A DNA stretch of 64,000 nt from the NCBI GenBank assembly GCA_050084515.1, contig CM114271.1, positions 33,976,001 through 34,040,000 on the forward strand. The letters are read 5' to 3'. The notes under the pieces were generated by a model. That model had not been told where the DNA came from, did not search any database, and saw nothing but the letters and a program-made list of their open reading frames with translations. This stretch comes from Blasia pusilla. Its lineage: Eukaryota. Shown piece after piece: positions 1,564 through 57,432 of the stretch. How positions within the stretch are numbered: position 1 is the stretch's first letter; the number at the start of each line of letters is the position of its first letter. Both the position numbers and the translations under genes were made by a program.

Positions 1564-2565
1564 TGTCGCGACCCTCATGACCAAACAAATGCCAAGCGGA
1601 ACATCGGAACATTAACAAGCTCACGCTAAGATGGTTTGCGCGTTGGAGTAGTCTCGAAGAAGAAACAAGAGACGAGACGCGAGCGAGGCTTCACATTTCA
1701 GATGTTTGGTGGACCGAGAAACGTGGACCAAACGGAATAAGACTTGAAAGGAGTTGAGTCTAGAAAGTGGGTTGCCAAAAGGAAGAATCCGGATTTGGAA
1801 TGCCACTAGCGTTTGAGAGTTTTAGATTGTATTTATAACCATAACTTTTAGCGCCGAGATGCGTTTGGATTAAAAAAGGGTGTGTTGGAAGGCTTATGGA
1901 AAGCCGGTTCAAACGCACTAAAGATCTCTGCAAACGCATAAGCAGCAGCTGAGAAACTACCCGGAAACGATTGTAAGTGGAGTTGGGTTGAGGGCCACAA
2001 TGAAGGGCCCGACTCTCCTTTTCCAAAGGAGGAGGGGGATTATTGGAGAACCCCAGAAGTTCTAGTAAGGGGGAAGGTCTCTGAGAGTGCTCGGAACTCG
2101 AACCCCACTTTGGGCGCCACGGGGCGGCTCAAGGGCATGGAACGGAACGCAAGTTTGGGGGTTGGGTTGGAAAACCTGCACCAAGTCTATTGAGGCGATT
2201 TTAGACATCCCTCTTGGATTTCACACCGCGACTCAATTACTTGGGTCTCAGTTTGGAACTCACACGAGATCCGTTGAACATTTGGGATCGCTAGGCGCGC
2301 AAGTGCCGTTTTAGATCCCTGGACTAACCAGGAAGTCTGTTCCAAGTCTTGAAGGACTTGCCATGTGTTGGAAACTAGGAAGTAAGGAAGGTTGAGCTTG
2401 ATGAGATGCCGAGTTGAGAATTGGGTGGGTTGGAACGCTGGTTGGCCCGGACTCGACTAACGAGAGTGCGTGTTTGGGTGCAGATCGGCGATGAGATCTT
2501 GTCCTACTGAACGTACGCTTCCGCAACACTAAAGATTGGCGTTCAAGGAGAGTAGGGGCGCGACA
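1564..2565 (+). repeat. 5' LTR (~1.0 kb)
   Basis: Starts TGTCGCGACC, ends GGGGCGCGACA. Matches 7873-8455 plus 22310-22722. Confidence 0.95.
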
Positions 2566-2567
2566 AG

Positions 2568-2579
2568 TGGTATCAGAGC
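2568..2579 (+). other. Primer binding site (initiator tRNA-Met)
   Basis: TGGTATCAGAGC lies 2 nt after the LTR end, the canonical plant tRNA-iMet PBS. Confidence 0.93.
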
Positions 2580-2714
2580 TAATCCTTGGTGAGCGAGAAC
2601 TTGGGGTCGTGGGATCAATCGGACGCTTGGGAAAACTCAAGGTAGCGGCTAGACTCAGACGCTCGAGGAGGGACGCAAGAAACGAGGAGGAGATCTGAGT
2701 GAGTTGGCTTGAAA

Positions 2715-5700
2715 ATGACGATCGAAGGGGAACAACCCAAGAAGCGCCGAATCAAGCGACGTGAACCAAGAGAGGAACCAATGCCATTAGATGAGCTCTT
2801 TGGGAGACTCCCGAAGAGCTGAACGCCAGTCGTGAGGACGTTCTAGAGGCGAATCCTTCCACGGGGCCATCGGGCCCAAACTCAGGGGAACGGACCGAGT
2901 CAGGCCAGGCGTTGGACTTGTTGAAGCTGTTGGTGGAGCAGATATCCCAGCAAAGCAAGCGGATTGCAGAGTTAGAGGCCACCCGAACTCCGGGTGCGGG
3001 CAAAAAGCTCTACAAGACAAACTTGCCCACGCCATTCACTGGGGTGGGGCGCTCGCGGAAAGTGAAGGATTTCCTTATGAAACTGGAACTGTACTTCGAG
3101 GCGCAGAGGGCAGTTGAGCAGGACAAGGTGACGATAGCCGTTACTTTCTTGAAGGATCATGCGTTACAATGGTGGACAACTCAATGAGAGGAATATCTGG
3201 TCGGCGAGTCACCTGTGAGTTGGGAGGAGTTCAAGGTGTTGATTGGGGATTGATTCACTCCGGAGTACCAAGGGTTGCGCGACACGGTGGAATGCGTGCG
3301 GATGCGGCAGAGTGGTTCCTTAAGCGCGTATGTGAGGGAGTTTAGTGCGAAACTGACTTCTCTTCCAAAGATGGATGAGCACGTGAAGAAGGCTATCTTC
3401 AATAGTAGACTCAAGCCGAGCGCTGAAAAGGCCATTTACCGAATGTCGACGTTTCCAGATACCTGCGCGGATCTTCTGAAGCTAGCGGAGCGGATTGGGG
3501 ACGATGAGGTCCAAACCCAGAAATCCTTTGAGCCAAAAGTTTTTTCGAAGAAGTCGAAAAATAAGGAGTTGTTCAAATGAGTCTGGAGTGGGGGCCAGCA
3601 CGATCCAGGAGAGTCATCTGCCCCGGCAGCAAAATGAGTGGAACTTCATGCAAAGCCGAGAGGAGGACAACACTCGAAGTCAGGGAACGGCAAAGGTCAT
3701 ATGCTACAACTGTGGCGAACTGGGGCACCTGGCAAAAGTGTGTTCGAAACCGAAGGTTAGTAATGGGAGTATGATTGCGTTTGTTGCTTAGCATCTGTTG
3801 GCGGGTGATCTCGAGACGTCCCTTCAGGTCACCAAGAGGACGCACAATTTGGTGTACCTAAGATCCAAGATTTCTGATCGCGATGTGTTGTTGCTTGTGG
3901 ATATAGGTGTTTTGCACTCCTTCCTAAGCCCGAGAATCGTGAAGGAACTGGGGTTGTCTACCTCTAAGGCGGATGAGCCCATTCGAGTAGGATTTGCAGG
4001 AGGCAAGTCTCATCGGACTTCTGAATTGGTCTTGGGTTTGACTGTAGGATGCGGGGTATTTGAGTTGAAGGAGAATTTCACTGTGTGTGAAATGGATGGC
4101 ATTGACGGAGTCTTGGGGAATACATTCCTAGATGCGTATGAGGTGGAGTTAAGACGTAGACCCTTGAGGTTGAGCGTCTTGCTAAAAGGCAAACGGTTAC
4201 AGGTGCGGTTGGTCCGTGAGGTTTTGGCGAAAAAGAAGTTAGTGAACTCAATTACAAGGAGGAGCATGACCGAGTTGGAGAATGGATTTCTCTGCTTGAT
4301 GAGACAAGTGGAGGAGGCTACAAGAAGAATACCCAGAGATCAGGACACTGCTTCAAGGGGAATCCTAGAACCACTCTAGGAAGTGGTCAAGGAGTTTGAG
4401 GATGTCTTGGCAAAGGAGCTTCCGACTGAATTGCCGCCACATAGAGCCGTCGATCATAAGATAGAGATCATACCTGGTTCCCAACCGCCTTCAAAAGCAC
4501 CATATAGGTTGAATCAGGAGGAACTTCTTGAGTTGAAAAGGCAGTTAAGTGAGCTCTTGGAAAAGGGTTACATTAGGACTAGCAAGTCACCTTATGGAGC
4601 ACTAGTTCTTTTTGTGAAGAAGAAGGATGGAAAGATGAGGCTATGTGTTGATTACCGTGCGTTGAATAAAGTGACGGTTCGAAACAATTATCCTCTTTCG
4701 AGGATAGATGATCTCTTGGATAGGCTGGTAGGCGCGAGATATTTCAGTAGGATTGACTTGAAGTCAGGATATTACCAGATCCGGATTGCCGAGGCAGATG
4801 TGGAGAAGACTATGTGTAGGACAAGATACAGTTCCTTTGAGTTTGTAGTGATGCTTTTCGGTCTATGTAACGCGCCTCCGACGTTCATCACATTGATGAA
4901 CTCCATTTTTCACAAGGAAATGGATGAGTATGTTATCATCTATATTGATGACATACTTATCTATTCGAAGTCACTAGAGGAGCACGTTCGACATGTGAGA
5001 GCGGTCTTGTCTAAGCTAAGGGCAAATCAACTGTATGCGAATGTAGAGAAGAGCGAATTTGGTTTGAGCAAGATCAAATTCTTGGGTCACGTGGTCAATG
5101 CAGATAGCGTCAGTCCAGACATGGAGAAGGTGAAAGCGATTGTCGAGTGGGAACCCCCATCCACTGTAAAGGGGATGAGGAGGTTCATAGGTGCGGTGCA
5201 ATTCTATCGCACTCATGTGAAAAACTTCTCGGGAATTGTGAGGCCTCTCACGGATTGGACAGCAAAGTTTGCCAATACGACTTGGACCCAGGAAGTTAAT
5301 GAGGCATTCAGCCGAGTGAAGCAGATTCTATCGCAGGAACCAGTATTGAAGCTGCCGGAGTTTGACAAACTGTTCGAAGTGCATACCGATGCTAATGATT
5401 TCACGGTTGCAGGAATGTTGGTGCAAGAAGGGAGACCGGTAGCATACGAGAGCAAGAAGCTGAGCGATACTGAACAGAGATGTCCCACTTGCTTGAGGAA
5501 GTGGCGGCATTATCTAGGGCTCCATAGGACTTGAGTATTCACCGATAATATATCACTAAAGTATTTTGAGACCCAGGATCGAGTGACACCGAAAAAATTG
5601 CGATGGCATGATACCTTGGCGTTGATGGATGTTGAGTTGATTCACAAGCCAGGTAAAGATAATGTGATTCCAGATGCGTTGAGTCGCAAGGAGGAACACA

Positions 5701-7187
5701 TGCCATCGACGACACAGGTCTTGAGAGCAATGTTCCCTAAAGAAATAGACCTGGAAAGAAGGATTCGTGAAGGATATATGAAGGATGCTATGACGGGAGT
5801 GTCGAGGAAGTTGAAGCGGGTGAGAAGGTGGCCAACATAAGTTTTGCTTTACTAAGGTTCAAGCAGAGTAGGATCTATGTAGGGCAAGGTAGGATCGAAC
5901 CAAAGTGTTAGAGAGTGTCCCAACCCTTGGCGGACATAAAGGAGAGAAATCTCGGCCCTGTCAAAGCGGTTCTTTTGGCCCAACATGAAAGAGGATGTTG
6001 CTCAATATGTGAAGACCTATGTGACCTCCCAAGCGAATAGAGTTTCTTATGATAAGAAACAAGGCTTTCTGCATCCCTTGCCGATCCCAAGAGGACCCTT
6101 GCAAAGTGTGAGTATGGATTTCATCACGAGTCTTCCGGAATCCTAGGGATACAACGCTATACTTGTGATTGTTGATCGGTTTAGCAAAATGGCGAGATTC
6201 GTGCCGACGGTGGATTCCGCGATGGCTTATACGACGTCGCAATTGTTTCTCGATAGCTGGTGGCGTGCTCACGGTTTGCCAAGGAGCATTGTTTCAGATC
6301 AGGATCCAAGGTTTACTAGTGCTTTCTGGAAGCACTTGTTCAGGAGGTTTAAGACCAAGCTGAGTTTCAGTACGGCTTTCCACCCACAGTCGGATGGACA
6401 GACTGAAAAGTTAAACTCAATCATGAATCAATACTTAAGGAATTATATCAGTGCTGATCAACGAGATTGGGTCAAGTGGCTGAGCATGGCGGACTACTAC
6501 TACAACTCGACCAAGCATTGTGCAACTGAAGAATCTCCGTTTCTCTTGGCAAATGGACGAGAGCCAGAAGGGCCTCTTGATCTAGCCCTTTCGAAGGGTA
6601 CTACATCGGCACAAAGACAACAAGCGACGGCAGAAGGTTTGTTGGTAGAAATGCGAGAACGGGAAGAGCGAGCAAGGCGAAGTCTTACAAAGGCTCAAAT
6701 GAGGTACGTTAAGCATGCTAACAAGAGTCGGTGCCAAGTACGATTCCAAGTTGGAGAGCAAGTGTGGTTGAGTGTGAAGAATCTCACTCTTCCGAAAGAG
6801 TTTTCTGCAAAGCTGTTTGCCAAGTATGGTGGATCCTATGTGATTGTGGCAAACCCGTTTGAGGATGTGTATACATTGGGGCTGCCGGACCAGTTCAAGA
6901 TTCACCCGACCTTTCATGTGTCATTTTTGAAGAAATATCTTCAAGATAATGGACGTTTCGAGCGGAGACAGGTGGTGAGACCGCACCCGGTGATCATAAA
7001 GGAAGAGCCAGAGTTTGAGGTGAAGACCATCTTACGTTCGAGGCGTCGGGCCAACAAGTATGAATACTTGGTTAAATGGAAGGGCTACCATGTGAAGGAG
7101 GCGACTTGGATTGCGGAGGCGGATTTGGAACACACGCAAGAGTTGTTGCAAGACTTTAAGCGAATGCAAGCGAGGCACATACGTTAG
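2715..7187 (+). pseudogene. gag-pol polyprotein (Gag, zinc knuckle, aspartic protease, RT, RNase H, integrase, chromodomain) with stops and frameshifts
   Basis: CYNCGELGHLAKVC knuckle; degenerate protease site LLVDIG; RLCVDYRALN and YIDDILIYS (RT); FEVHTDA (RNase H); IVSDQDPRF...HPQSDGQTEK (integrase); FEVKTIL...YLVKWKGY...ATW (chromodomain). Confidence 0.95.
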
Positions 7188-7859
7188 TAAGAGGAGAAGC
7201 TAGAGACACGACTTGTAACCATTGGAATCTTGGGCCGAAGGCCGTTGTAACTAGAATATACTAGTGTTGCAATAAAGGAGTGTATGGATTTGGAGATTCG
7301 ATACCAGAGTTGATTGCAATTTGTATGTTGTAGTGCATGGCTATGAGTCGTTCATCATAGGCTTAGGATGTAAAGAGGACATACAAGGAGTATTTGAGGT
7401 GAGAGCTCGTATGTGGATAAGCACCTAGAATAGGACCTTGTGTTGGATTACACTCGGGCTCGCCCTAGCGTCGGCGGGGCAGATGATGTCTGTCTGGGGC
7501 TTGGGGTGATCTTACTTGTGGCTACATAAGTAAACTTAGTGACGCGCCTAAGTAGAATACGAGAGCGACCCAATAGTAGTACGATTTGTAGACCACGTAA
7601 ACAGGTGTGATGTTTATAGGAATGAGCCAGAAGAGTCTAAGGTTGCACACTTAGTTAGCTTATTTGATAGGTTAGTTCTTTGGAAACAGTTCAGGCTTAT
7701 CAAAGAGGAGAGGCTAATAATTCTAAGTGGGACAAAGCGACAACTATAGACTAAGAGGAATTGCGGGTTAGCCACCAGAACGCAATTCAATGTCAAGGGG
7801 TAGGTTGCCCGGGAGACTTGACATAACAAAGGTTTGCGTTGATGAGGGCATCAACCTCT

Positions 7860-7872
7860 AAAGAGGGGTGAG
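7860..7872 (+). other. Polypurine tract
   Basis: AAAGAGGGGTGAG directly precedes the 3' LTR start TGTCGCG at 7873. Confidence 0.85.
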
Positions 7873-8455
7873 TGTCGCGATCCTCATGACCAAACGAATG
7901 CCAAGCGGAACATCGGAACATTAGCGGGCTCACGCTAAGATGGTTTGCGCGTTGGAGTAGTCTCGAAGAAGAGACAAGAGATGAGACGCAAGAGAGGCTT
8001 CACATTTCAGATGTTGTGGTCGCGACCAAGAAACCTGGACCAAACGAGGAATAAGACTTGAAAGGAGTTGAGTCTAGAAAGTGGGTTGCCAAAAGGAAGA
8101 ATCCGGATTTGGAACGCCACTAGCGTTTGAGAGTTTCCGATTGTATTTATAACCATAACTTTTAGCTCCAAGATGCGTTTGGATTAAAAAAAGGTGCTTT
8201 GGAAGGCTTATGGAAAGCCAGTTCAAACGCACTAAAGATCTCTGCAAACGCATAAGCAGCAGCTGAGAAACTACCCGGAAACGACTGTAAGTGGAGTCGG
8301 GTTGAGGGCCACAATGAAGGGCCCGACCCTCCTTTTCCAAAGGGGGAGGGGGGCCCAGAAGTACTAGTAAGGGGGAAGGTCTCCGAGAGTGCTCGAAACT
8401 CGAACCCCACTTTGGGCGCCACGGGGCGGCTCAAGGGCATGAAACGGAACGCAAG
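7873..8455 (+). repeat. 3' LTR, left part (before the MULE insertion)
   Basis: Colinear with 1564-2153 up to ...GGAACGCAAG. Confidence 0.93.
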
Positions 8456-9119
8456 TTTTTTTTTTTGGGGGGATTGGTATTCCAGCGGGAGAGAGGAAGA
8501 GAGGAGAGTCTCTCTTAAGAAAAAAGGGCCAAATCCGCCTCCTCTCTTCAAAACTTTTTGACATATTTGAAATTTTTGTTTGCTTTCAAATTCATGAAAT
8601 CTTTAGAAGAGAATAGATAGTGGTTCACATTTGGCCCTAAAGAAACCTCCTTTTTCTAGGGGGCGAAAAAAAAGTAGACATCATAAGACCACTACAAAAT
8701 TTTTCCGCCACTCTCCATGTGAGCCTAAGTTTCTTAACATGACGTGTCTCGGTCTACAAAAAACAGTGCCCATGGGTATTTTTGTTGGAGGACCACCCGG
8801 ATGCCAACCTCTCTTTTTGCAGGAACTGCATCATGGCCTCTCTGAATTGCCCCATAACCAACTTTCTCGTTGGTTATGAATTGCTCAAGACCAACTTTGT
8901 GAAATGTGAACACATGAGAGGATAATTGAACCAAAAGATTGTTAGTCGTCTGGAGTAAAGAGGAACTGATGTCCCTTCATTGGATCCTAAAGCCGAGAAC
9001 CGAGAATCGCACCCTCCCAACCCGTAGAAAGAAAGCTCACCATAAGAAAGGAAAGATTTTTACAAGTGATTTTCTTCCACCCTCGCACCCACGACAATCT
9101 AATAGGTTGGGAATCCAAA

Positions 9120-9640
9120 ATGGAAACCGGGTAGTAGGAATCTGCACATCTTAGACAAGAAAAGAAGCCTACAATGCTGGTTTGACGAATGTAGGGAACG
9201 ACAAAAGTTAAGAAGCCCGCCACAATGCGTCTGTTGGTCTCACACGGAAAGAGTCCGATCACTCAAGCGATCAGGTCGAATCCGACAACTTGCTTGGAAA
9301 TGGTTAAAACGTTGAAGTGGGCAAAAAGCTCAAAGTTGCAACCCGTCAGAATCATATGGGTTGCAAAATTGTAATTCTGAGTAGCTAAAATAACACAATG
9401 CACTAGTCCCAAAAAACTTTCCAACAAACTTTTACAAACACCATTGTCGGTTGAAAAAATCTCGACCTTTATTACCTCCGAAGGAACCTCGGAAATGTAC
9501 ATTTGACCTAGTCTATGATTTCTTCAGCCTCGTCATCTACAAATTTACTCCTAACTCTCCTCGATGACAGTACAAAAGGAATGTCCTGGGATACAAATGG
9601 CTCCTCTAGCCGATTGTAGACGGGATCGTCGAGAGTGGTA
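9120..9640 (-). pseudogene. Diverged second copy of the C-terminus and 3' flank of the MULE methyltransferase gene
   Basis: HTTLDD...SKFVDDEAEEIID* (stop 9508-9510) parallels HTTLH...ELFDDEAKDFIT* (stop 11660-11662). 9120-9507 aligns by eye to 11298-11659. Confidence 0.7.
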
Positions 9641-11254
9641 TGTCTCACCGGGTAATACATGGCAAAGACACAACCCAGGTGAAAGCGTTGCTACCAAGTT
9701 CGGTCCCATGTAAGAGCTTAGGGCGGATCGAAGATCAGATCTGCAAGATATACTCCTTAATTTGTAAACCCCACCTCTTTACCTTAAGAGGTGGGGGAAC
9801 TCTCTCCACTTCAGTATCACAATCCTATCCTCATCCTACTAACCAAAACTCCTTCCTTTCTCTTGAGTGCTTTGAGTGGAGTGGCAGTGGAACCCAACAA
9901 GCACACTCTACTTAGAAACCCAAGGATGACCACGGCATAAGGTCCTCTGCCTTGGACTAGTTGAATGTACCAAGGCATCCTCTAAAGTACACCCGACTCC
10001 TAACCGATCAGGTAGTGCAATCACCTTCTTCTTCTCCTCGACCTTGCTGATGGTTGTTCTCCCTTCTTGTTCGGGTAGTAGGAGACTTAACAGGCTGAGG
10101 CCAACATACAGGGGAGCTCAAGCATGACCCTCTCTCTCTCCACTCACTAACTCTTATCACTTACAGACACTGGAAGTCCAAGTTGTCACACCTTGGAAGT
10201 AATCATGTGATTGGTGTCAAAGGCCAAGCTTAGGTGGGCGAACAAAGCTTTCAAGCTTTCCAAGCACACCTTGGTGGAGCACAATCTTGGAACCCAAGCT
10301 TGCCTCCCCTCACTTTGGTAGATCCTCTTGTCCTCTCCCTGCACTTTTGAATGATTAGTTGAATCATCTCCAAGAATCTCCCTTCATCAAGCCCTCCCCA
10401 ACTCATCACTCAATCATGCACATACTCGGATACAAGGCAATGGTGTGAACTCATTTCACTGGCTACCTCCCGTGTATCACAAAATCATAGAGTACATGAG
10501 AGACCTTCTTAGTCTCACCCCCCTTCAAGCACACTACACACTACCTAGACTTGGGAGCACAAAACTTTGGTTAGCTTGGCTCAAGAGATCGGTGTCTACT
10601 AGCCAACAACATGTATATGCCCCTTCAAGCAAACCCACCTGAGTATTTATAAGTGAAGTTGAGAGCCCTCTTCTTCCTTGAGCTTCTCTGGTATTCTGGG
10701 TTCCTACCTTCCTAAAAATCTACCTCCCCTAAGCATCTACTCCAAGGCATCTATGCCTGAAATTTCGACCTCATCTACTTGAACCTGTTCTCACTAGCAT
10801 TTCCCAAGCTTGCTTCTTCTCAAGCTGGTTCGAGATTCCTTGGTGCTCCTCACCTGATCTCACCTGATCTCCGCTGCTCCTCGGCTGATAATTACTTCCC
10901 GCTTCCTCACCGATCTCACCTGATCTCCAAAAAATCATTACTTGATCTCCTCGGCTGATAATTACTTCCTCGCTGCTCCTCACCGATCTCCTCAGCTGAT
11001 AATTACTTCCCTGCTGCTCCTCACCTGATCTCACCTGAGTCATGCACCGCTCCTCACCTGATCTCACCCGATCTCACCGATCTCCTCGGTGATAATTACT
11101 TCCCTGCTGCTCCTCACCGATCTCACGTGATCTCCTCACCGGCTGATAATTACTTCCCCCGCTGCTCCTCACCAGACGCCATAATGGTCTCATGTAACCT
11201 GATTTGAGTCCCACCGCTTCTCGGCAATATACCTTGTACGCCCGCAATGTGACA
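9641..11254. mobile_element. Putative solo LTR (~1.6 kb) inside the MULE
   Basis: TGTC...GACA termini, TATA-like TATTTATAAG near 10645, no long ORF. MULE homology stops at 9640 and is visible again by ~11298. No matching TSD. Confidence 0.5.
10845..11172. repeat. Degenerate tandem repeat (CTCCTCACCTGATCTCACC and GCTGATAATTACTTCC modules)
   Basis: About five copies of TGATAATTACTTCC interleaved with CTCACC(T/C)GATCT units. Confidence 0.8.
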
Positions 11255-12353
11255 CCCATCCAAGATCAATACGTGCTCCGCCCTTGGTAATACCATTATG
11301 GAAATCGGACGGGTAGTAGGAATCCAACACGTCTAAGAGAAGAAAAGAAGTCCGCCGCCTTTACGAGTTGAGGGAAGGTGCCAAGGGAAAAATGCCTCTT
11401 AAGTTGGACCAACAGGGAAAGAGTCCGATCAGCAAAGAAGAATCCGACAGGTTGCCGAAAGTGGTAAAAAGGTGTTTGTCGTCAAAAAGTGAAAAGTTGC
11501 AAGCGGGAGAAATCGGACGGGTTGCAAAATAGAAGTCCCTGGAGTACCGATCACATTCAAAAGACATAAAAATTTGAGCAAACTTTTACAAGCACCACCA
11601 TCGTTGAAAAATCATCTCCTTTATATCATCCGAACAAAGCTCGGAACTATACATTTGATCTATGTTATGAAATCTTTTGCCTCATCATCAAATAACTCCC
11701 TACTCCAAACGCTCTAGTCTTGCTGGGTCTTGAGTTCTTTGAACTCACTCGTCATCGTCCTCGAGAGCTCTTGCAAAATTACTTTTGGCCTTGCCCTCCC
11801 GATTTTGGAATCGTTGGAAGTGACGATGGAGTCACTACCAATGGTGGGTGAGGAACCGAGCTCTCGGCCGTGGAGAGTTGTATGCCCCAACGAGCCCTTC
11901 GATTCTCGCCTTTGCCTCCTTGCAAAATTCTGCCTTCCTCGAGGCAAAGAATGTTCCCGCCAGGGACGCTTTGATACTTGCCCCTGAAAGTCCCACTAAG
12001 TCGAACACCAAGTCACCCGGCCTTGAGCAGAGCTCGATGAGCGTTTTCATTAGGGCTGGCGACTTTTCCCTTCCTCCCAGAAGTGGGGTACCGTCTTGCA
12101 TGTAAATTCCCGGGGTGGAATTGTACAAACTATCTAAGCTGTACCCATCTGAGCATGGATCCACAAGATCCTGGATCTTGAACACCTGGAAATTGTGCTC
12201 GGGCCGAACGAAGCAATAAACGTAGGAGTGGTCCATCTGTAAAGAAGCACGTTGGAACCAATGTCAGCAACTTGGCATAATGTGCAACACGTCACCAAAG
12301 AACTCGTCTTGACCCTAGATAACTTTTTTTCAATTACTAACTTTGGATCAATG

Positions 12354-12616
12354 CCGGAGTCCGGCGGGTTGTTTTGTCCTCGACCAACCCGTCCGGAAGG
12401 CGACGGGTTTCGGCCTAGAGCGGCCCATGCTCGGCCGAGAGCAACTCGCTTTCGAAAACACAGGAAAAACCAAAAGCAATCGCAACCTGCCGGGTTCCGA
12501 CGGGGTTGATACACCACGGTTTTCCTGTGTTTCGAATGATGCAACCCGCTTCGGAAACCGACGGGTTGCTTTTAGCCGAGCATGGGCTGCCAACCCGTCG
12601 CCTTCCGACGGGTTGC
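12354..12616. repeat. Palindrome cluster A (~5 copies) in an intron of the MTase domain
   Basis: Example: GCAACCCGCTTCGGAAACCGACGGGTTGC at 12541. All copies lie inside intron 12315-12714. Confidence 0.85.
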
Positions 12617-14673
12617 TGAAAAACAACGGAGATATACTATCTGAAATTCAAACGCATTGAGCCTACCCAATTTGAAAATATATTTGAGATTTTACTACAG
12701 GAATTGAGCCTTACCCGATCGACTCGTCGCGGATCGGAGTGGGTACTCATTTTTTATGATCCACGATTGCGCCGTTTCCTCCACTTTAGCGACCTCTTGA
12801 CGCGCTTTGGAGGTTGAAGAGCTCGTCCTCGCTCCCTCGAATCAACACTAAGAAGCAGCCCGTGTCACTCGAGATAGGCCCGCAAAGGAGAACAATAGCG
12901 ATTTGGTCATAAGAGAGCGCACATTCGATCGGGTACTCCATCCGACGGATTCCGCAACCCCGAGGGGCAGATCAGCGATCAAGAGATCCACCGCATTCTC
13001 TTCGACCACTCCATTCATCATCCAGGCAGCGTGCCCGTTGCGTTGGAGCTTCCGTCCCAACGTTGTCAATTTATCAATGGCTGGTGTCGACGCTTGAGAT
13101 ATCAAGCTTTTCAGCTCATCCAGTAAAGGAGTGAACTGAAGGAGGATGCTTGTCCGGGTCGTTGTTTCTCTGTGTCTTCCCAAGGATGATGGACTGTATT
13201 TTCCTTGGGACAACACTGGCACCTGTTGCTTCCGCTTCTCCCGAGTCTGCGGACCGCTTGTCGGGGTCTCTATGACCTCATACTCTGGTGGGGTTTTTTT
13301 CGCCGAGGACCTAGTCCGTCCCTCTCTCCCTGCTCGCCCGGACGATTCCGCCTCTGGCCTCGAATCTTCAGCCTCTCTTTGGGAAGACTCGGCCTCGGAA
13401 TTTTTCCCTCCCCTCGCCTTGCCTTTGAGATCCGCTCTGGATTTGTCTTTGGTTGTGCGGACCTTGGAAGCCAACTCAGCTGTCTCGTGGGCTTGCTCTT
13501 CCGCATCTCCTCCGAAGAAGTCTTCAGGCTGCAAAACATTGGGGATGTCGTCTTGTCTTGAGGCCACTGCATCATGAAGCACTCGTAAATCCTTATCGAT
13601 GATGTCTTCAGGGTCGTTGAAGTCAAGCCAAATGGGGCAATTCTCCACCTCCCAATCGGACATGTGCTGCCCCATCTCCATGTCGTACATGGAGAATGTC
13701 TCTCCATCAGGCGGCAAAGCCCACAATTTCAAGGCTGCCGGTAATTTTCCCCAGGTACCTGCATTCTTACACTGGATGAGGTACCTTGAGACCATCCGTT
13801 GGGCAGATTTTACTCGAACTAAATCGGCCATCTGCTCCTGTAGATCTCGCTTCTTCTTTGCTTGATCCCGTTTGTTCCCCTCGATTTCTTCGTCAAGCTC
13901 GCATGAGGGAGGACGCAAACCTTGAACATTGTCTTGAATCTGGGTTTTTGATTGGCTTGTCCGGATGTCGCCGAGCCAAACTCAAATCTGAGAACTTTCC
14001 AGTTCATCCGAATGGGTTCTAATCTTTTGAGCTCGCTTGCGCACCGCCCAACACGGACTTCCCGATAACCCGCAACGCGCCCCTAACGACCATTCGCGAG
14101 CGGATCGACACACCGGAGGATGGTGTGCCACCCTCTTTGGGCCTCAGGCCTCGAGACTGATTTTCATCGGATCCTCATAAACTCGCTTATGCCGGACAAC
14201 GTAAACCGATGCACGCGATCCGGGGACACTTTCTCCCCAATCCGACCTTGCGGATCTTCATCCCTTTTCGGGCGCTTGATAATCGCCTTGCTCCTTGTAA
14301 AACTCCGGACCAAGTTCGGGGTTGAGAATGCTGATGTATCGCGCATCTTGCTCACCGTGTATTTCGTGGGTCTGCAGATAGTGGAGCTTGATGAATTTCG
14401 CGCGCGAGACTCGCTCGGTCAAAGACTCTTCTTCGCGACATGTATCTTCGACCAGCAAAGGATGGTTCGGCTCCATCTTGGGAAATAAACTTATTTGCCC
14501 AAGTTTTTTTTTTATCTCAGGCACCCTTTGCAAGCATCTGATTTACCAGGGCGTCGCCCAAGAACCGCTTGTACTCTCCCGGGTGCGTCGTAAGCACCTT
14601 CTTCACCCGATCGCAGTCCTGGATCCAATGGTGGGTGACATTCCCCTCCGATACAATCCTGCACATCCAAACT

Positions 14674-15419
14674 CAACCCGTCAGAAAATTTGTAAGTTAC
14701 ATGGGTTCCTGCAACCCGTCGGACTCCGACGGATCGTCTCAGCTCAAGGTCAGATTCTAGCAACGAGCTAAATGATGCAACCCGTCGGAGTCCGACGAAT
14801 TGCATTCACATTTGTGAATGCGTGGTTTCAACCCGTTGGACTCCGACGGATTGTCAGATAGTCCGTATCAAACGTGAACATAGCAACCCGTCGGAGTTCG
14901 ACAGGTTGCGCAATTGAATTGAAACTTGCAATTTGACGCGAAATTTGCTAAACCAACTTCCGAATGCAACCCGTCGGACTCGAGTTGATTTCGCCAAAAC
15001 GATTTGAGTCAAGCAACAGCCGGACTCGACGGGTTGCTTTGGGCCAAAACATACTAAACCTGTGGTCAGTCGAACAACTCGTCGGAGTCCGACGAGTTGC
15101 TTTCTTCAAAAAACATCCTGAAAAGGCGGCGAGTCCAGCAACCCGTCGGACTCCGACGGGTTGCTTTGGGCCAAAAACTTATTAAACCTCTGGTCACTCG
15201 AACAACTCGTCGGAGTCCGATGAGTTGCATTCTTCAAAAAATATCCTGAAAAGGTCGAGTCGAGCAACTTGTCGGAGTCCGACGAGTTGCTTTCGGCAAA
15301 AAATAACCTAACCCATTCATCAATCGAGCAACTCGTCGGAGTCCGACGAGTTGCATTTGGCCAAAAGCATCCCAACAATAGTGCCGACCCAAACTACTTG
15401 TCGGAGTCCGACGGTTTGC
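14674..15419. repeat. Palindrome cluster B (~13 copies, ~63-64 bp period in the right half) in an intron
   Basis: Perfect AGCAACCCGTCGGA-C-TCCGACGGGTTGCT at 15137-15165. Other copies at 14711, 14777, 14884, 15075, 15203, 15264 and 15328. Confidence 0.92.
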
Positions 15420-16693
15420 AGCAAGAAGATACTTACGTGTTCATGGCATGCATTGCCATCTCCACCGTCGCCATGTGATGAGGGAATGGATGAAGGACCA
15501 CTGCCTTCACGCAAAAATGTGCCTCCAAGGAGTTGGACCGCTCCTCTGCAAACTTGCTCCACGCCATGAACTCGTGATTTCCAGATGAAACTGATTCCTC
15601 ATCCGCTGAATTCTGTGCCCTCTACTTGCCTTCTGAAATCCTGGTCTCTCATCCTCCAGAATGTGTCGAGCTTATCCAAGTCCTCCTCCGTAACGAGGGC
15701 TTGGGTTCCATGCTTGTCGTAAGGCTGAACATAGAAGGGAGGAAAGCTGTCGCCGCCGATTGTTTAAGCTTCGCGATGTCCTTGTCGGACTGAATTTCGT
15801 GGACGTATTCCATTGTCCGCAATCGGCAGAGTGGAATCCTTGCGGCGTTGTGGCCCTCCATCAGTGCCATCTGCTTTACCACCTATCAGAACCGGGACAA
15901 GATCAATAGGCTACACTGAATTCCCAATGAATTGCAATTCACATAATTCAGAAAACCCAGATCCTCTCTTACCTGCTCGAAAATTGGGTCGGTTTCTTCA
16001 CCATCCAACTTGTCTGAGATAGTAGCTGGAAAATCGACTGGGAACTCATCGATCCGATAGAGGTCGATGTCTTCCACCGGTCTTGGAGACGAGAATGACC
16101 GCTCTCCGGCTTCTTCGGCAATGTCCACCATCTCCACGCTGGCGGTCGTCATCACCTCATCGTCCGTGATTTGAACTTCTGGCGTTTTCGCTATGTTGAT
16201 TGTGTCCCCGGACTTCATCGGGGACATTTCCTACAGCTCAACACTTTTGGTTGGATGGGCAGGGCTGTCGTAAATGGCTATTGCTTTTTCCCTCCTCGCT
16301 TTAGCCAATTCTGCTCTCCTCACCGACGCGTCTAGACGATTCTTTTCTCTCTTTTCGTCGGCGATCCTTTTCTTCAAGGCCTACGACGTCTCAGCCTCTG
16401 CGTTCTCTCTATCGAGCGACTCTTGAACACGTCTCGCAAGAAGCTCCTGGTTGTGCATCTCCGCTTCCCTTTCCCGCTCCTCGATTTCCTGCTCCCTAAT
16501 TTCATTTGCCGAACTAGGCCCTGGAGATGCTGACGCAGGAGTTCTAATGGACTTCGGAGTGAAGCTCCGAGACATGTTTGCTTGAGCTTTTTTCCTCGTC
16601 ATTTTTCCGGGAAATATCTCCACCTATGTCCACGATGAATCGCTTGATCAATCGCCTTGTTGATGTCGAGATGAGTTGCCTTGATGGGTAGCT

Positions 16694-16791
16694 CGAATCG
16701 TCTCGCGATCGTTCAGTCGAACCGTCTCCCTCTCGTTCGGTCGAACCGTCTCGCTCTCGTTCGGTCGAACCGTCTCGCTCTCGTTCCCTCG
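16694..16791. repeat. 24-bp tandem repeat (~4 copies) in the predicted 5' leader of the MTase gene
   Basis: Unit CGAACCGTCTCGCTCTCGTTCGGT. Confidence 0.85.
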
Positions 16792-16909
16792 TATCGACTC
16801 GCGATGACTCGCCGTGTGAAACGCCCCTTGGTATCCGATCAGCTGCTGCGCGGGAGAGAGAGGAATGGAGATCGCGAAATGAGAAACCGGAAATGAGCGA
16901 TTTCTGCCC

Positions 16910-16917
16910 TATTTATA
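16910..16917 (-). promoter_or_regulatory. TATA box of the ParB-like/MTase gene
   Basis: TATAAATA on the minus strand with CTCATTTC initiator-like motifs 20-35 nt downstream. Confidence 0.6.
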
Positions 16918-17007
16918 CTTTTCTAGCCGTTGGGCTGACCGTTGGGTCCCGTCGTCCTTTCGACGGCGACGTGCCGGCCGTTACGGAAGTCCGAACGTGA
17001 AAAATGG

Positions 17008-17753
17008 CAACTCGTCGGACTGCGGGTTGCGTGCCTCCGCCGTCCTGGGAAGATAACGCGAGGTGCGCGAGCAACCCGTCGCAGACCGACGGGTTGAGCG
17101 CCTCCGCCGTCTTCGGACAAGAACGCGAGGTACCTGCGCAACCCGTCGGAGACCGACAGGTTGCGCGCCTCCGCCATCTTCGGAGAAGAACGGGGCGTAC
17201 CCGTGCAACCCGTCGGAGACCGACATGTTGCGCGCCTCCGCGTCTTCGGACAAGAACGGGACGTACCCGCGCAATCCGTCAGAGACCGTTGGGTTGCACG
17301 CTTCCCTCGTCAAGGGTTAACAACGCGGGCTTCCCGCGCAACTCGTCGGAGTCCGAGAGGTTGTACGCTTCCTTCATGTAAGCGAAACAAGGCGAGGCCC
17401 TTGCGCAACGCGTCGGAGGGCGACACGTTGCAGGCCTCGCCGTCTTTAGGCAAATAGGTGCGGCACCCGCGGAACTCGTCGGGAACAGACGGTTTGCACG
17501 CTTCCTTCATGTAAGTGTTACACCATGAGATAATTGGGCAATCCGTCTGATGCCGACGGGTTGCAAGCCTCCGGCATCTTTGGGCAAGAAGGAGCGGTAT
17601 CCGAGCAACTTGTCGGAGAGCGACGGGTTCCCAGCTTCGACCATGTTTGCGTTTGAAGGTAAGGCAGAAGCGTGCAACCCGTCCTAAGCCAACGGGTTGC
17701 AGGCTTCGCTTAGCTTGGGTTAATTGTTGAGTTACCAGGACTCCGACGGGTTC
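17008..17753. repeat. Palindrome cluster C: ~12 copies at 66-67 bp period between the two divergent promoters
   Basis: Palindrome starts (GCAA(C/T), GGAAC at 17471) at 17071, 17138, 17205, 17271, 17338, 17405, 17471, 17538, 17605 and 17674. Confidence 0.93.
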
Positions 17754-17929
17754 CAACAAAATGAAGTATGCTTCGCAACCCACGTCTCTGCTTCCCAAAT
17801 CCCGGTAACACATTGCAACAGAATTGAATCTGTTGCAGCAGAATTGGATCCATTGTGTCAGACAATGTCACCTACTGAACTTCATCTTGACAATAAAAAT
17901 CTGTAAGGAGTATCTATTTTCCTATTCAC

Positions 17930-17936
17930 TATAAAT
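17930..17936 (+). promoter_or_regulatory. TATA box of the transposase gene
   Basis: TATAAAT followed by a pyrimidine-rich TCATT-repeat initiator region (17943-17980), then coding-like sequence. Confidence 0.55.
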
Positions 17937-17999
17937 TAAAAATTCTCATTCTCATTTTCATTTTCATTCTCACCCTCCTCCCGTACAAAATTTCTGGGA

Positions 18000-20900
18000 G
18001 TGGATAATTATGTGAAGTTCACTTGTGGCAGTCATCTAGCGGGCCTTCCTCAATCAGAAATCATTCGACCGCAAGCTCGTGAGTCTTTCATAGCAGTGGA
18101 TGAAAATTTTCTCTCTGTTGGATTTCTTCTCCAAATTGGAATCATCTTTGTATCCAAAGATGTTAGGGTGGACAGTACGGAAGATATAATAGGTGAGACA
18201 GTCCAGCCAGTGACTGCAGACCGTAAAGTATGGAATCTCCTACCTCAAGAAAATGGTCAATACAGAGTTTACGGCCTGCCCTTGAATTCGTCTGTTTCCC
18301 AAGTAGACGGTGGAGAATTCCCTAGTGCTCCGGCTCTACGTTTGCAACTCCTAGCTTAGTACATCCGGCTTCGACTCCAACTTCACACGCTCGTATCAAT
18401 TTTGTTCTTCCTAAAGAGATTCTGGATGTTATCAACCTCAGTGGATCTGTCGGACACCAACCGGGCCCTCTGTCCGCCTACTCGTTCCTCTTGCGAGTAT
18501 CAGGCAATAGTTTGCTTTCGTCTTTGGCCTTGAAAATGTTCAAGCACATTCTTGTCGACGAGCTGCCGCCCACGTACGATGGTAATTGCATTTTTGAGTT
18601 GCCTCCACTGGCTTTTTGACGCCTGAAGGGTATGGACAGAAAGTCTGATTGTCATCGATGGTGTAGGCTTCAACGGACTAGTGCTTCAATTCCAGATGGT
18701 CCTTGGATTGTATCCCGCCGCCAATGCATGGGAGCCTTGGAGTGTAGAAGTCTAGCATGCTCGTATCTGGAGCCCAACGGGCGAGTCGATACGTCGCAAT
18801 TCCCCCCCAAGAATGCAGAAACTCCATATGAGGTCGGTGCCACCATACCGCCGGGAGGCCATCGATGTCCTCATTGTCAGGCATCGCCCTTCTACGTTGG
18901 AGCGTGTCCTGCATACATATTTTTCATTGTCCACGACTTGGGCTCCACGTCAGAGTACACAAGAATGGCAGTTCATGTTGGCTCCTACACTCATCCTGTG
19001 ACCGATGCAATTCAAAGACACATCAAGGAGGATGTGGCGAATAAAAGTTGTCGAGGTCTCCGAAAACTCTCCGGGTTCAAAGCCCGGAGTGATCAAGATC
19101 ACAACGGCATCACAAATTTGTGAAGAATTGCTTGGAATCCCTGGACAGGGCAAGATCACGGCGGCTGAGGAGAAAAAACTCTGGATAAATCTCGCATTTC
19201 TCGCTGATCCTGAATGCTTCCGGAATTTGCTGCTTCAAATACGAGTTTTGGATGGAAAGACGGCCGAAATGGATGCCATCGCCAGAACTAAGGCCAACTC
19301 CAGATTTCCATTCATTCAGAGATGGCAGTTCATGGGCCAAGGAGGCGAGGGATCCAGGGCCTATGTCTTCAAAATGTCAACCACAGGTCCGTCGAGTGGC
19401 CTCGATCTTATAGATTGAATGAGGGAAGGGGAAGATCTTTACGGCAGCTGGGTAAGCTTTGATATTTGCTCTGAGTCTTTGAACGGATAGTTGACGATGG
19501 GTGCTCACGTTTATGACCATGTGGAGAAGGGACTCAAAACTATATTTGTGCGTGAAGTAAAGGCGTAAGACGTTGGCGGTTTGAAGATGTTTGGTTACTC
19601 TTATTGGAGGTGGTGAAGGAAAACAAAAGGCCACCTCCGGAAATTTATGGGTTCATGGCAGATAATGCACAACCTGGGTGGATTGCTATCCGGGAAGTGT
19701 TCTGGGGTGGAGAGGTTCAACCGGAGAGGGAAAGGTTGGATGCTTTCCATTGGCAATGATCTGTGACCGGTACACCAAATCTTGCATCAAGGAGGATAAG
19801 AGGACAGAGCATTCACTCTACTCCAACGCTGCAAGGACAGCAAAACCTTGAAGCAGGACATGGAATGCCAGGAAGAACTTCATGGGTGGTGGAGGAAGCA
19901 TGCGATTGAGGGGAAGGACAATGAGTTGTGCTCTTGGTTGAGTTGGTGGACTGTACGTATGAGATAATGGGGAAACTTCATGCGGCAGGTGAGTTCACTA
20001 TTTTGTCTTGTCAAGCTCACGCTAAGAATTGTTTGTAAAGTTGCAACTCAGGTTGAGAAGCCGACGAAAACCGACGAGTTGCCCGAGTGTGTAACCCGAC
20101 GGAAACCGACGGGTTGCATCCAGAATTTTGGTGCAACCCGAGTGTGCAACCCGACGGAAACCGACGTGTCGCAGAGTCGTTCATGGGATGCCTCGGCCTT
20201 GCAACCCGTTTGAATCTGAGGGGTTGCAGTAGGTGGGTTTAGGGTTGCAACACGTCATGACCCGACGGGTCGCAGAGTCGTTCATGGGATGCCTCGGGCT
20301 TGCAAACCGTCTGGTTCCGATAGGTAGCTTATGTCTTTGACTGCTGAGTTATCTTCGTTCCCTTCTAACATTGCTGTCGTTGCAAAGATTGAACGTTCAT
20401 GAAAATGCCCTCTTCCCCAACACAAGTGGAGCAGAAAGTGTTCATTCCTCCTGGAGGTTGTCATAAGCATGCCAACAAATTTCACTTGTGGAGGCATGCT
20501 AACAAGACCAGGCAAGAGCAATGCTACAGTCTGCAGCATCCCATATCTTCCTCACAAAAGGCATAACAAAAGGAAGGGGGTCGTGGATCTACGAGCTCTA
20601 TGTCAAGGCGGCTATGAGATTTGGTGATGAAAAAATGTATGTGGAAGCCTTCAACCGGTGCGTAGCTGGAACTCCCCTCGAGCAAGACGTACACATTGGT
20701 GGGGATATTCGTGGGCGGGTTTCAAGACGTCCCATACAAATGGTGGTAGAGCAGTCCGAGCGAGACTCGTGGAGACCAGATAAGTATCTTGACTTCAGGG
20801 AGGTGAAGAGGCAGCATCGAGGAACGAATCCGGTGATTGATTTGGATGAGGAAATTACGCCGCCCAGGTATTAGGGGACCCCGCACCCGTCCCAAATCCG

Positions 20901-21885
20901 TGATGGAGTTACTTATCCAAAATCAGTGAATTTTTTATTTCAAAATCCCTCCGTTCTTTGGAAGTTGAACATCCCCATCCGGGGTGGTTCAACAATATGG
21001 GATTCCGGTAATGGAGGTGGATTGCAACCTTAAACAGTGGCATATATCTCGGAGCAATCCACGACGTGGACCCACTGCAGGGCAGGATCTGATGGCATTA
21101 GGAGAGCATGCGACACTTTCCTAAATAAGAATTATACAAGGATTGGACGACCACTGCCTGGGTTTTGGGGACTCAAAACCTTTGATCGTTTCACTTGGAC
21201 CGGGGATCAATTGAAGTACTTCTTCTGCCCAAATGAATCTTTCGCTTTCCGGAAGTCTTATCCGGCTGCCATTGGAGCTCCGGGGAATATCCCCACGATT
21301 TGGCCCATCGCCGCAGGTACAAACTGCACTCAAGATGAAGTGGACAATCTTACAAGTGTCGGTTTGAGACTCGTAGACGGGGGAAGTTCGGGGCATGTTC
21401 TCATTACAGAGACCTTCGCATTTCGTATTCAACCCAAGATTGATGTCAACATGTTCTCCGAGAAGGTGGATGATCTCAATCCACTATTTCTGTTTGAGTC
21501 TAGAAATGGGGTGAAGAGAAACAGAATGTGTAGGCCAACGGTGGAGAGAGCAAAGCAAATTGCATCAGCTCAGGAGGCAAAAATGGAGATCATCGCCACA
21601 AAAGATGTCGTGTGTGGCAATGGAATAGGAAGGATGTATTGGGTCAGGAACAACACTGTAAATTCAAGTGTCACAAGGATGTATGTGGTGCACATCTGTT
21701 GCTTTCCCACATGTTCATGTGATGACTTTGTCCAAAGAGAGACAAGTGGCAAAAGGTATTTCCCTTGTAAGCACATGAACTATGTGTTGCTGGTAGTTTT
21801 AAGAGAGTCGGAGGTAGGAATAGGAATCCACCAACAAATTCTGTCCCTCAAAGAAGTGTGAAGTATTTTAAACAAACCACTTTGA
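18000..21885 (+). pseudogene. MULE-family transposase: GCM-like Zn domain, DDE core, SWIM finger; many stops and frameshifts
   Basis: QCMGALEC...C...CPHC...ACPA...HVGSYTHP (GCM-like). WVSFD (D, 19461), GFMADNA (D, 19661), DAFHW (CxxH position), WLSWW, NTSGAESVHSSW (E, 20434). CSC...CKH SWIM at 21712-21774. Intron ~19989-20387. Confidence 0.82.
20043..20329. repeat. Palindrome cluster D (~6 copies) in the transposase intron
   Basis: AACCCGACGGAAACCGACGGGTTGC near 20093 and GCAACCCGTTTGAATCTGAGGGGTTGC at 20201. Confidence 0.85.
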
Positions 21886-22309
21886 GGATGCAAAATGAGG
21901 TTTTAGATTGTACTTTTATTTTTCCTGAACCTTCATTTTGAGCTTGAACTCTATTCAGCCCGGGGCAAATGATAGATTTTTTCCAGACCTTGGATGGAAA
22001 AAGTGATTGGTTCCACACTTATGATTCCACTGATTTTTCAGTTTTCTAAATTTTGTGCAATTGGCAACTCTTCGGACTCAGAGGGGTTGCCAAAATATGG
22101 AAGAGGAAAAAAAACTATGGGACTGCTTAATATATGAACAAAAAAGTGCAAAAAAATTCAAAAAAAAAGTTTCCTCTCTTCAACCCAACGGAAACTCTCT
22201 TAAAAAAAATGTATCTATTTCGGTTGAAGGTAGTTTCCTCTCTCCTCTCTCCTCTCTTCCCCTCTCCTCTCTCCTCTCTTCCTCTCTTCCTCTCCTCTTA
22301 CCGCACCTC

Positions 22310-22722
22310 GTTTGGGGGTTGGGTTGGAAAACCTGCACCAAGTCTATTGACACGATTTTAGACATCCCTCTTGGATTTCACCCCGCGACTCAATTACTTG
22401 GGTCTCGGTTTGGAACTCACATAAGATCATTTGAACATTTGGGATCGCTAGGCGCGCAAGTGCCGTTTCAGATCCCTGGACTAACCAGGAAGTCTGTTCC
22501 AAGTCTTGAAGGACTTGCCATGTGTTGGAAACTAGGAAGTAAGGAAGGTTGAGCTTGATGAGACGCCGAGTTGAGAACTGGGTGGGTTGGAACGCTGGTT
22601 GGCCCGGACTCGACTAACGAGAGTGCGTGTTTGGGTGCAGATCGGCGATGAGATCTTGTCCTACTTAACGTACGCTTCCGCAACACTAAATATTGGCATT
22701 CAAAGAGAGTAGGGGCGCGACA
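22310..22722 (+). repeat. 3' LTR, right part (after the MULE insertion)
   Basis: Colinear with 2153-2565 and ends GGGGCGCGACA. Confidence 0.93.
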
Positions 22723-24455: not shown

Positions 24456-25486
24456 TGTCGTGCGCCTACTCTCCTCGAACGTTAATCTTGTTTGTTGCGG
24501 AAGCGTGCGTTCAGTAGGTCATGCTCTCAACGCTGATCTGCATCCAAACACGCACTTTGGTTAGTCGGGTCTTGGATCAATCAGAGGGATTACTTTCCGA
24601 GTTCTCGTCTCGGACTCTCATCAAGCTCAACCTTCCTAGTTTCGCGGTTTACAACACGGGCAAATCTCGAAAGACTTGGGACAGACTTTCTGGTCGGTTC
24701 AGGAACCTGAAACGGCATTTCGCGCCTAGCGGTTCCAACTGTCCGATGGACATCCAATGAGTTTCTCATCCAAACTCGCACGAAGTGAATCTCGGGTTGG
24801 AATCCAAGTGTGGCGTACAAAGTCCACTCCCTTGGATCAGGTTTGGGTTTGGAGTTCCCACGCCAAACTCCCGTTCCATCTCGTGCCTCTGAAACGCCGT
24901 TTGGCGCCCAAAGTGGGAATTCGTTTCCCGAGACATCTCGGAGAGAGTCCTCCCTTAGTAGTTCTTCTGGGGATCTCCGGGGGCCCCCTACATTTAGGGA
25001 AAGACACCCGAGCCTCTCCAATTGGCCCTCAACCCGATTGCTCTCTCAATCATTTTCGGCCAATATCTCAGCCTGTACTTATGCGTTTTTTGAGATCTTT
25101 GGTGCATCGGAAGCGTCTTAAGATCAGCTTTCCAACGCGCCCTTACTTGTACCAAATGCATCTTGGAGCTCAACGTTATGGTCCTAAACACAGTCAGATT
25201 CTCCCAAACGCTAGTAGTGTTCCAAACTGGTTCTCACCTCTTTGGCAACCAACCTCCCAAGACTCAACTCATCTCAAGTCTTGGCTCGCGTTTGGTCTAG
25301 GTTTCCTGGTCGCGACCACTAACGCATGAAACGCATGACTCTGTTCCGCATTTCGTCTCTTAGACTTTTCCAAGAGACTTTTCCAAACGCCTCTCCAAAG
25401 CGCAAACCTCGCAACGTGAGTTCCTTTGAGTTCTGATGTTTCACTTGGCGCCTATTTGGTGTTGTTTGGTTATGAGGGTCACGACA
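24456..25486 (-). mobile_element. Solo LTR (~1.03 kb) of a relative of the chromovirus
   Basis: TGTCG...CGACA with 5-bp TSD CGCGG/CGTGG. Its reverse complement aligns by eye to 1564-2565. Confidence 0.88.
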
Positions 25487-41317: not shown

Positions 41318-43623
<2,306 letters not shown>

Positions 43624-57100: not shown

Positions 57101-57432
57101 TGCCCATGGCGTTCGAGAACTTGACGATTGCACAGCATCGGGATATGTTGAGGTATGCGACTATTCGAGGTGGTGGTTATCGACCAACTATCCAGAGGTT
57201 TTATCAAGGAGATTATGTCTACTTGCAGCAGATGGCACCGACGACGTTGGATGTGACTGCAAGGCGCACTATCCTGAGAGTGCGTGACATTTTGCCATCG
57301 GGTGTTCTCTTGCTGGAGGGACGCGATGGTATGGTATGGAAGGACCATGTGCGTAATTGTGCGCCATATCACCTTCCTAACATTGATGGTACAGTAGATC
57401 CGAGCTTAGCAGTAGTTCCTGCAGGCTTGCGT

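Follow-up and report, generated by a model that had tools for sequence, protein, structure and literature searches.

Structure and insertion site of the element

The window analysed here is a stretch of 64,000 nucleotides of Blasia pusilla DNA (assembly GCA_050084515.1, contig CM114271.1, positions 33,976,001 to 34,040,000), and all coordinates below are positions within it. It contains an inserted element of 13,838 bp (8472..22309), which carries two divergent sets of long open frames and arrays of a 27-nt palindrome, and which appears to be a decayed Mutator-like element (MULE). The whole analysis concerns this one decayed copy of the family.

The boundaries of the element were established by comparison with an empty target site. 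In a self-comparison of the window, the left flank (8001-8458) aligned with positions 1692-2156 (91.9% identity over 470 nt) and the right flank (22310-22722) with positions 2153-2565 (96.4% over 413 nt). These two matches adjoin at 2153-2161, and the two flanks of the element are therefore contiguous in the second copy. Pfam domains for gag, protease, reverse transcriptase (RT), RNase H, integrase, an SH3-like domain and a chromodomain were found at 2795-7184, between the matching stretches, which are therefore the long terminal repeats (LTRs) of a Ty3/gypsy chromovirus; the element lies in the 3' LTR of this retrotransposon. The empty site in the other LTR (2153..2161, where the two flank alignments meet) reads ...CGCAA-GTTTGGGGG-TTGGGTTGG..., with the right side beginning TTGGG. 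Read side by side with it, the filled site has GT(11)G(5) to the left of the element and GTTTGGGGG to the right. On the basis of the empty site, the left copy of the target-site duplication (TSD; 8455..8471) is GTTTGGGGG with its T-run expanded to 11 T, and the right copy (22310..22318) is GTTTGGGGG itself. The TSD is 9 bp long, GTTTGGGGG, and the element ends are exact, which bears out the TSD-bounded element at 8472-22309 proposed in a preliminary description of this DNA.

The host chromovirus occupies 1692-8458 and 22310-22722. The 92-96% identity of its LTRs limits how old the insertion can be. A third LTR-like copy, more diverged (72-77% identity), lies on the minus strand at 24456-25319.

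The long open frames of the element form two divergent, head-to-head sets, in agreement with the two head-to-head genes described earlier: the plus-strand set is assigned to the transposase, and the minus-strand set is referred to here as gene 2. Frame lengths were compared with those in 300 sequences simulated to match in first-order composition. The length of the largest gene 2 frame (377 codons) was reached in 0/300 of these sequences and that of the longest transposase frame (275 codons) in 2/300; both are beyond chance length, and both were therefore coding not long ago. The rest of the element is full of stops and frame changes, and this copy is therefore dead, as the earlier label of pseudogenised had it.

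Palindromic arrays in non-coding DNA

The palindrome is 27 nt long, GCAACCCGTCGGANTCCGACGGGTTGC, and is restricted to the element. Thirteen full matches were found at up to 3 mismatches (0.00 expected from 100 shuffles). Across the 64-kb window, all 25 matches at up to 5 mismatches (25/25) and all 33 at up to 8 of 26 mismatches (33/33) lie inside the element, with 0 in the other 50 kb of the window. Relaxing the threshold to 9 mismatches gave 39 matches, 37 of them inside and two outside (3252 and 3279), while half-sites at up to 2 mismatches fell inside in 63 of 65 cases (outside: 45408 and 54477). The manual count of roughly 35-40 copies, none outside the element, was therefore close, and the palindrome was not common elsewhere in the window.

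All copies are off the long open frames: they lie between the gene sets, in gaps within the span of each gene, or singly, so that their earlier placement in the non-coding parts of the element also stands. Array 1 (14711..15419; 11 copies, period ~64 in its regular part) and array 2 (17071..17700; 10 copies, period 67) are located between the gene sets. Array 3 (20056..20328; 6 copies, period ~55) occupies an intron-like gap inside the transposase gene span, and a cluster of three copies (12482..12616) an intron-like gap between two gene 2 open frames. Three copies are single. Two of these (9338..9364 and 11499..11525) lie in the first and second copies of an internal direct repeat of ~450 bp (9107-9559 and 11284-11714, 66% identical), and the third (22064..22090) is 220 bp from the right end.

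Alignment of spacers between arrays gave mean scores of 2.1-3.0 (1.7-2.3 when shuffled), against 12-14 within one array. In neither orientation are spacers from different arrays related to one another; each array therefore arose by its own amplification, with the palindrome as the part retained throughout. An origin of arrays 1 and 2 from a single promoter module copied in inverted orientation was rejected for the same reason.

A hairpin was also considered. Between the two arms, 78.6% of cells were paired (78.7% in 500 shuffles), and double changes were seen in 3 pairs (shuffled mean 4.1). Pairing no better than in shuffles is explained by both arms keeping one consensus and not by covariation, and the hairpin reading was rejected. 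A dimeric protein acting on duplex DNA would fit this pattern better.

Conservation of the palindrome is strongest in the outer arms and weakest in the centre, with position 15 at 58%. The centre of the consensus is GANTC, which is present in 14 of the 33 copies. Substitutions at the C and G positions are mostly transitions, as might be expected if methylated cytosines were deaminated while the copy was silenced. In array 1 (15074-15354), four copies carry matched C-to-T and G-to-A changes at the mirrored positions 6 and 22 (CTCG...CGAG). Across the full set of 33 copies, such mirrored changes were not above shuffles, and the four probably reflect tandem duplication of one doubly changed unit.

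Searches beyond the window gave no relatives of the palindrome. A metagenome scan with a 20-nt palindrome pattern returned 78 loci with one match each, no arrays and a median GC content of 0.69; these loci were rejected as relatives and regarded as chance matches in bacterial DNA. Rfam gave 0 matches over the whole window, and in a full-text literature search with the half-site strings all matches listed were on unrelated subjects.

Transposase frames and superfamily of the element

The plus-strand set includes a Cys/His-rich frame of 167 codons (18620..19120), which an Atlas feature search points to as a candidate N-terminal WRKY-GCM1-type DNA-binding finger. Its first Atlas neighbour, taken as a lead, scored 0.93 (168/256 features) and is a cluster with GCM on 12% of its members; the next neighbours were FLYWCH, DBD_Tnp_Mut, FAR1 and ZSWIM3_N clusters. 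The frame had no Pfam match, a PDB sequence search returned chance antibody matches only, and a search of viral contigs gave 0 matches. Further downstream, putative remnants of a broken transposase core, read from the frames, are spread over three frames (19419..20020, plus strand; e.g. ...GFMADNAQPGWIAIREVF...LDAFHW...). No profile match and no homologue was found for this core, and its PDB sequence matches were again chance antibodies. The 275-codon frame (21034..21858, plus strand) would be the C-terminal transposase exon and contains a SWIM-type CxC...CxH at nt 21703-21777 (Pfam SWIM E 0.26; Atlas SWIM clusters 0.83-0.85). Neither this frame nor the read-through core frame had a match in a 5.8-billion protein collection, searched among longer proteins only (0 matches).

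The preliminary description had called this protein a GCM-like/DDE/SWIM transposase. The SWIM assignment partly holds (CxC...CxH, Pfam E 0.26, Atlas 0.85), the GCM assignment survives as an Atlas lead at 0.93 only, and the DDE assignment found no profile match. Since the core is split over three frames, decay could hide a DDE domain. MULEs typically produce TSDs of ~9-11 bp, a range that includes the 9-bp duplication found here. Taking the TSD together with the finger and SWIM leads, Mutator-like is the best label for the element, without a demonstrable DDE domain in this copy.

The element could instead come from a different DDE superfamily whose members have SWIM-type fingers and duplicate 8-9 bp of the target, the Zisupton/KDZ-like group being an example. 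No MULE-domain profile matched the frames searched, even the one with the putative second aspartate, as would be expected of such an element, and its terminal repeats are weak and of low complexity. The sole terminal inverted match consists of a GA-rich left arm of 25 nt (8484..8508) that is identical at 23/25 positions to the reverse complement of the right arm (22269..22293); its local alignment score was 40 (maximum 33 in 200 shuffles), and it lies 12-16 nt inside the ends. The 9-bp TSD and the DBD_Tnp_Mut, FAR1 and ZSWIM3_N neighbours of the finger frame, all Mutator-related, argue against this assignment, and profiles of KDZ or other transposase families were also without a match. We consider a superfamily other than MULE rather unlikely.

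Methylase-like remnant in gene 2

The large exon of gene 2 is the 377-codon frame (12851..13981, minus strand), which has a long predicted helix and a middle part rich in K, E and S. This frame has 0 relatives among 1.84 billion representatives and no Pfam family. Its last ~50 residues contain VDLLIADLPLG, colinear with methylase motif IV; placement of this motif on ADLPLG scored -1.6 bits with a hidden Markov model (HMM) and is not significant.

Downstream on the same strand, a 142-codon frame (11838..12263) is methylase-like over residues ~54-122 (nt 11898-12104) and contains ...EKSPALMKTLIELCSRPGDLVFDLVGLSGASIKASLAG...AEFCKEAKARIE... The Pfam family N6_N4_Mtase matched it with E 0.0045 over profile positions 165-193 of 221, at 17.4 bits compared to a gathering cut-off of 26.7, and five type II/III methylase models of PADLOC matched it with E 0.002-0.07. 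In a PDB sequence search it matched CcrM (6pbd; E 0.04, residues 200-262), and tblastn against phages returned 151 records with E 0.02-1; among the 20 records listed, 19 matches fell under annotated methylases and one record was unannotated. The C-terminal block (K-P/S-x-x-L-M...GD-x-V-x-D...G-x-G...) aligns with CcrM 200-262 and three phage methylases, and the putative motif IV precedes motif I, which is the order of the beta-class amino-methylases. We take the 142-codon frame, on these alignments, to be a real remnant of the S-adenosylmethionine (AdoMet)-binding end of a beta-class amino-methylase. By the same sequence comparisons, the rest of the methylase domain, beyond the ~70 C-terminal residues, is not demonstrable.

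Gene 2 also differs from the beta-class enzymes. The FxGxG core of motif I is degenerate (DLVGLSGAS), and gene 2 has no DPPY or SPPY: in the six frames of the element, (D/N/S)PP(Y/F/W) occurs as three strings, none of them in the gene 2 frames or on the minus strand of the gene 2 span. Given DLPL at the colinear catalytic position, the methylase-like domain may be inactive in the family; it is just as possible that DLPL arose by decay of this single copy. The beta-class methylase motifs noted earlier are thus retained for the C-terminal AdoMet-binding region, below the Pfam cut-off, and lost for the catalytic motif. Further searches added no relatives: the methylase-like frame found none at E<=0.1 among 477 word-sharing candidates in the 5.8-billion protein collection (longer proteins only) and 0 matches in viral contigs, and NCBIfam gave nothing relevant on seven gene 2 frames.

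Gene 2 might be cargo of the Pack-MULE type, that is, a captured and functionless methylase fragment of host or foreign origin, with the arrays being promoter or enhancer repeats for host factors or mere satellite DNA. MULEs are prone to capturing gene fragments, as the available part of PMC6431247 describes, and bryophyte hosts can own methylases of the N6_N4 type, given that the Marchantia DN4MT1 genes are reported to cluster with prokaryotic N4 methylases in the accessible portion of 10.1101/2021.02.12.428880. Detection of only the C-terminal ~70 methylase residues is what a captured fragment would leave, and arrays 1 and 2 lie within the 3.9 kb between the first long frames of the gene sets (13981 and 17940), as promoter repeats might. 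Each palindrome arm moreover holds CCGAC, presumably the core of the plant dehydration-responsive and C-repeat (DRE/CRT) elements. Against this, on the minus strand the methylase-like frame comes after a 377-codon frame far beyond chance length, which suggests a real multi-exon gene and not scrap. No catalogued protein is similar to the fragment (E<=0.1, 477 candidates), and it was therefore not captured recently from a catalogued gene. The palindrome is also kept over three arrays with unrelated spacers and in the intron-like gaps of both genes, which exceeds simple promoter duplication. Overall, cargo of this kind is a possible explanation of gene 2 and the arrays, albeit an unlikely one.

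Searches for a ParB module

Gene 2 had also been described as carrying ParB-like motifs. No ParB-clan Pfam family matched at E<=1 in 108 open reading frame (ORF) pieces of at least 35 residues, and none matched in the three read-through frames per gene strand or in the opposite-strand frames (E<=0.5). Likewise, NCBIfam and PADLOC detected no ParB in seven gene 2 frames. ParB-like motifs are therefore unsupported in all six frames with stops read through, and of the two domains for which a profile match had been sought, N6_N4_Mtase matched below its cut-off and ParB did not match. Single-sequence AlphaFold models had a mean predicted local distance difference test (pLDDT) score of 47 for the 377-residue frame and 33.6 for the second model, too poor for a fold search.

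The ParB-like impression likely came from palindrome translations that mimic the arginine-rich ParB box. Four of the six minus-strand strings of the GxRRxxA type are translations of the palindrome (e.g. QPVGLRRVA), and the other two are in short open stretches without profile support. Over the palindrome copies at 14711-20328, several frames give QPVGLRRVA-like strings, which are misleading when motifs are read by eye.

These results bear on the model in which gene 2 is a ParB-methylase fusion that loads on the palindromes as on parS and deposits N6-methyladenine or N4-methylcytosine (6mA/4mC) on its own copies, for anti-silencing or self-recognition. The model can draw on the methylase-like C-terminal region of gene 2 and on the restriction of the palindrome arrays to the element. 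The consensus centre is GANTC, which we take to be the CcrM site, and CcrM is the best sequence match among solved structures. However, no more than 14 of the 33 copies contain GANTC, and conservation of the palindrome is lowest at its centre (position 15 at 58%), which weakens the case for a CcrM-type target. Precedent exists in the ParB-adenine methylase fusions and linkages of phages, chlorophytes and chytrids, as given in the available part of PMC4738411. Compared to the phage ParB-methylase loci, the present locus has no recognisable ParB domain, and its methylase-like block lies in a eukaryotic, intron-bearing gene inside a transposon. The absence of a ParB-clan profile match in six read-through frames and 108 ORF pieces, the 377-residue N-terminal part without relatives among 1.84 billion representatives, and the origin of most GxRRxxA strings in the palindrome all argue against the model, as do DLPL at the colinear catalytic position and the degenerate motif I; the AlphaFold models (pLDDT 47 and 34) are too low in confidence for fold comparison. 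With no ParB module recognised, the self-marking proposal has lost its loader. The ParB component behind the exceptional look of the element is thus not supported by the profile searches, and we regard the fusion model as highly unlikely.

Other features of the element and window

The central region between arrays 1 and 2 (15420..17070) contains minus-strand open frames of 114 and 122 codons without a recognisable family, and may be a third gene or the 5' exons of gene 2. Tandem repeats without the palindrome are found inside the element at 10836-11176 (periods 41/70) and 16692-16805 (24/48), the latter giving a RERDGSTE-type repeat in minus-strand translation.

Elsewhere in the window lies a second retrotransposon (54950-57570). 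After its RT, integrase zinc-binding domain and integrase core it has a PHD finger (57076-57570, E 6.5e-12), in the position taken by the chromodomain in chromoviruses. A single clear host gene was seen across the window, represented by two exons of a porphobilinogen deaminase (42071-43121, minus strand; Pfam E 2e-48 and 2e-23).

Interpretation and relation to known systems

We read the element, with moderate confidence, as a decayed MULE with a transposase, a methylase-derived accessory gene and arrays of predicted family-specific palindromic binding sites. It is a dead copy of what would be a large cut-and-paste transposon of the Mutator-like type, inserted into the 3' LTR of the Ty3/gypsy chromovirus. 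Its transposase would have had a WRKY-GCM1-type zinc finger at the N-terminus and a SWIM finger at the C-terminus, and a divergently encoded accessory protein would have joined an orphan N-terminal part to a C-terminal part that goes back to a beta-class (N6/N4) DNA amino-methyltransferase. The 27-bp palindrome is predicted to be the family-specific site of a dimeric, sequence-specific DNA-binding protein, most likely one encoded by the element, either the transposase finger or the accessory protein. Separate rounds of amplification would have spread this site as arrays through the promoters and introns of both genes, in the style of VANC arrays, and the arrays would control the expression of the element itself, its chromatin state or its transposition.

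Several points weigh against this reading. The palindrome binder could be the transposase finger, the gene 2 protein or a host factor, and a host transcription factor is among the candidates. Profiles of DDE/MULE (PF10551), FAR1, DBD_Tnp_Mut and GCM gave no match at E<=1 in ORF pieces or read-through frames, the Atlas feature neighbours are leads and not alignments, and the GA-rich 25-nt low-complexity inverted match is weak as a terminal inverted repeat. All methylase matches are under curated thresholds and span ~30-70 residues. A custom HMM built from three phage methylases gave E 1e-8 for the 142-codon frame (next best of 2,143 ORF pieces of the window: E 6.9), a value that is partly circular as the three methylases were picked for matching this frame. 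The palindrome and gene 2 may also be features of this one copy and not of the family, gene 2 may be a captured fragment, and DLPL may not be ancestral.

The closest known arrangement appears to be that of the VANDAL21 (Hi) MULEs of Arabidopsis, whose VANC proteins act against silencing. According to the available part of PMC10398659, the tandem repeats to which a VANC protein binds are non-coding, belong to its own VANDAL copies and diverge fast. In that source, as in the proposed reading of the present locus, a Mutator-type element has an accessory gene beside the transposase, and short motifs stand in tandem arrays in its non-coding parts (promoters and introns); the arrays diverge fast while the motif is kept. 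The VANC-like arrangement suggested earlier is thus upheld for element-restricted palindrome arrays in non-coding DNA, which resemble VANC target arrays. In contrast to the short and asymmetric VANDAL motif, the motif here is a 27-bp palindrome, kept as one unit in three arrays with unrelated spacers, and the accessory gene, known here from its sequence, ends methylase-like. A more specific form of the comparison would have the accessory protein, built on a bacterial-type amino-methylase fold and acting as an active enzyme or a dead reader or binder, recognise the palindrome itself, which would make it a private chromatin-marking or anti-silencing system and a methylase-based analogue of VANC; we give this form only a small chance of being correct.

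Eukaryotic mobile elements with a bacterial-type DNA amino-methylase domain have a precedent in the DAM-LTR and DAM-DIRS retrotransposons, which, as far as the available part of 10.64898/2026.05.21.726589 goes, encode prokaryote-like DNA adenine methyltransferases with a proposed role in tuning the chromatin of the elements themselves. Those elements are retrotransposons with a Dam-type domain, whereas a DNA transposon with a beta-class (N6_N4_Mtase) remnant is proposed here; the words MULE, Mutator and ParB are absent from the text of that source. The methylase domains of DIRS1 were called inactive by Iyer and colleagues in the portion of PMC4738411 at hand, and possible inactivity of the domain in gene 2 would parallel theirs. 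Fungal DNA transposons carry TET/JBP dioxygenase genes, as set out in the accessible part of PMC12730594, and share with the present element a gene for a DNA-modification enzyme next to the transposase gene. They differ from it in enzyme class and host kingdom, and the same part of that source describes no palindrome arrays. Among the papers that our literature searches listed, none described an N6/N4-type methylase gene in a MULE or any other DNA transposon, with or without private palindrome arrays.

Few transposons are known to have chromatin tools of their own. The examples are the VANC proteins of VANDAL elements, the Dam-type methylases of retrotransposons and the TET/JBP enzymes of fungal DNA transposons, and they illustrate the ways in which mobile DNA evades host silencing or turns it to use. 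If the proposed reading is true, a plant DNA transposon pairing a methylase-derived gene with private palindromic arrays would be a new combination.

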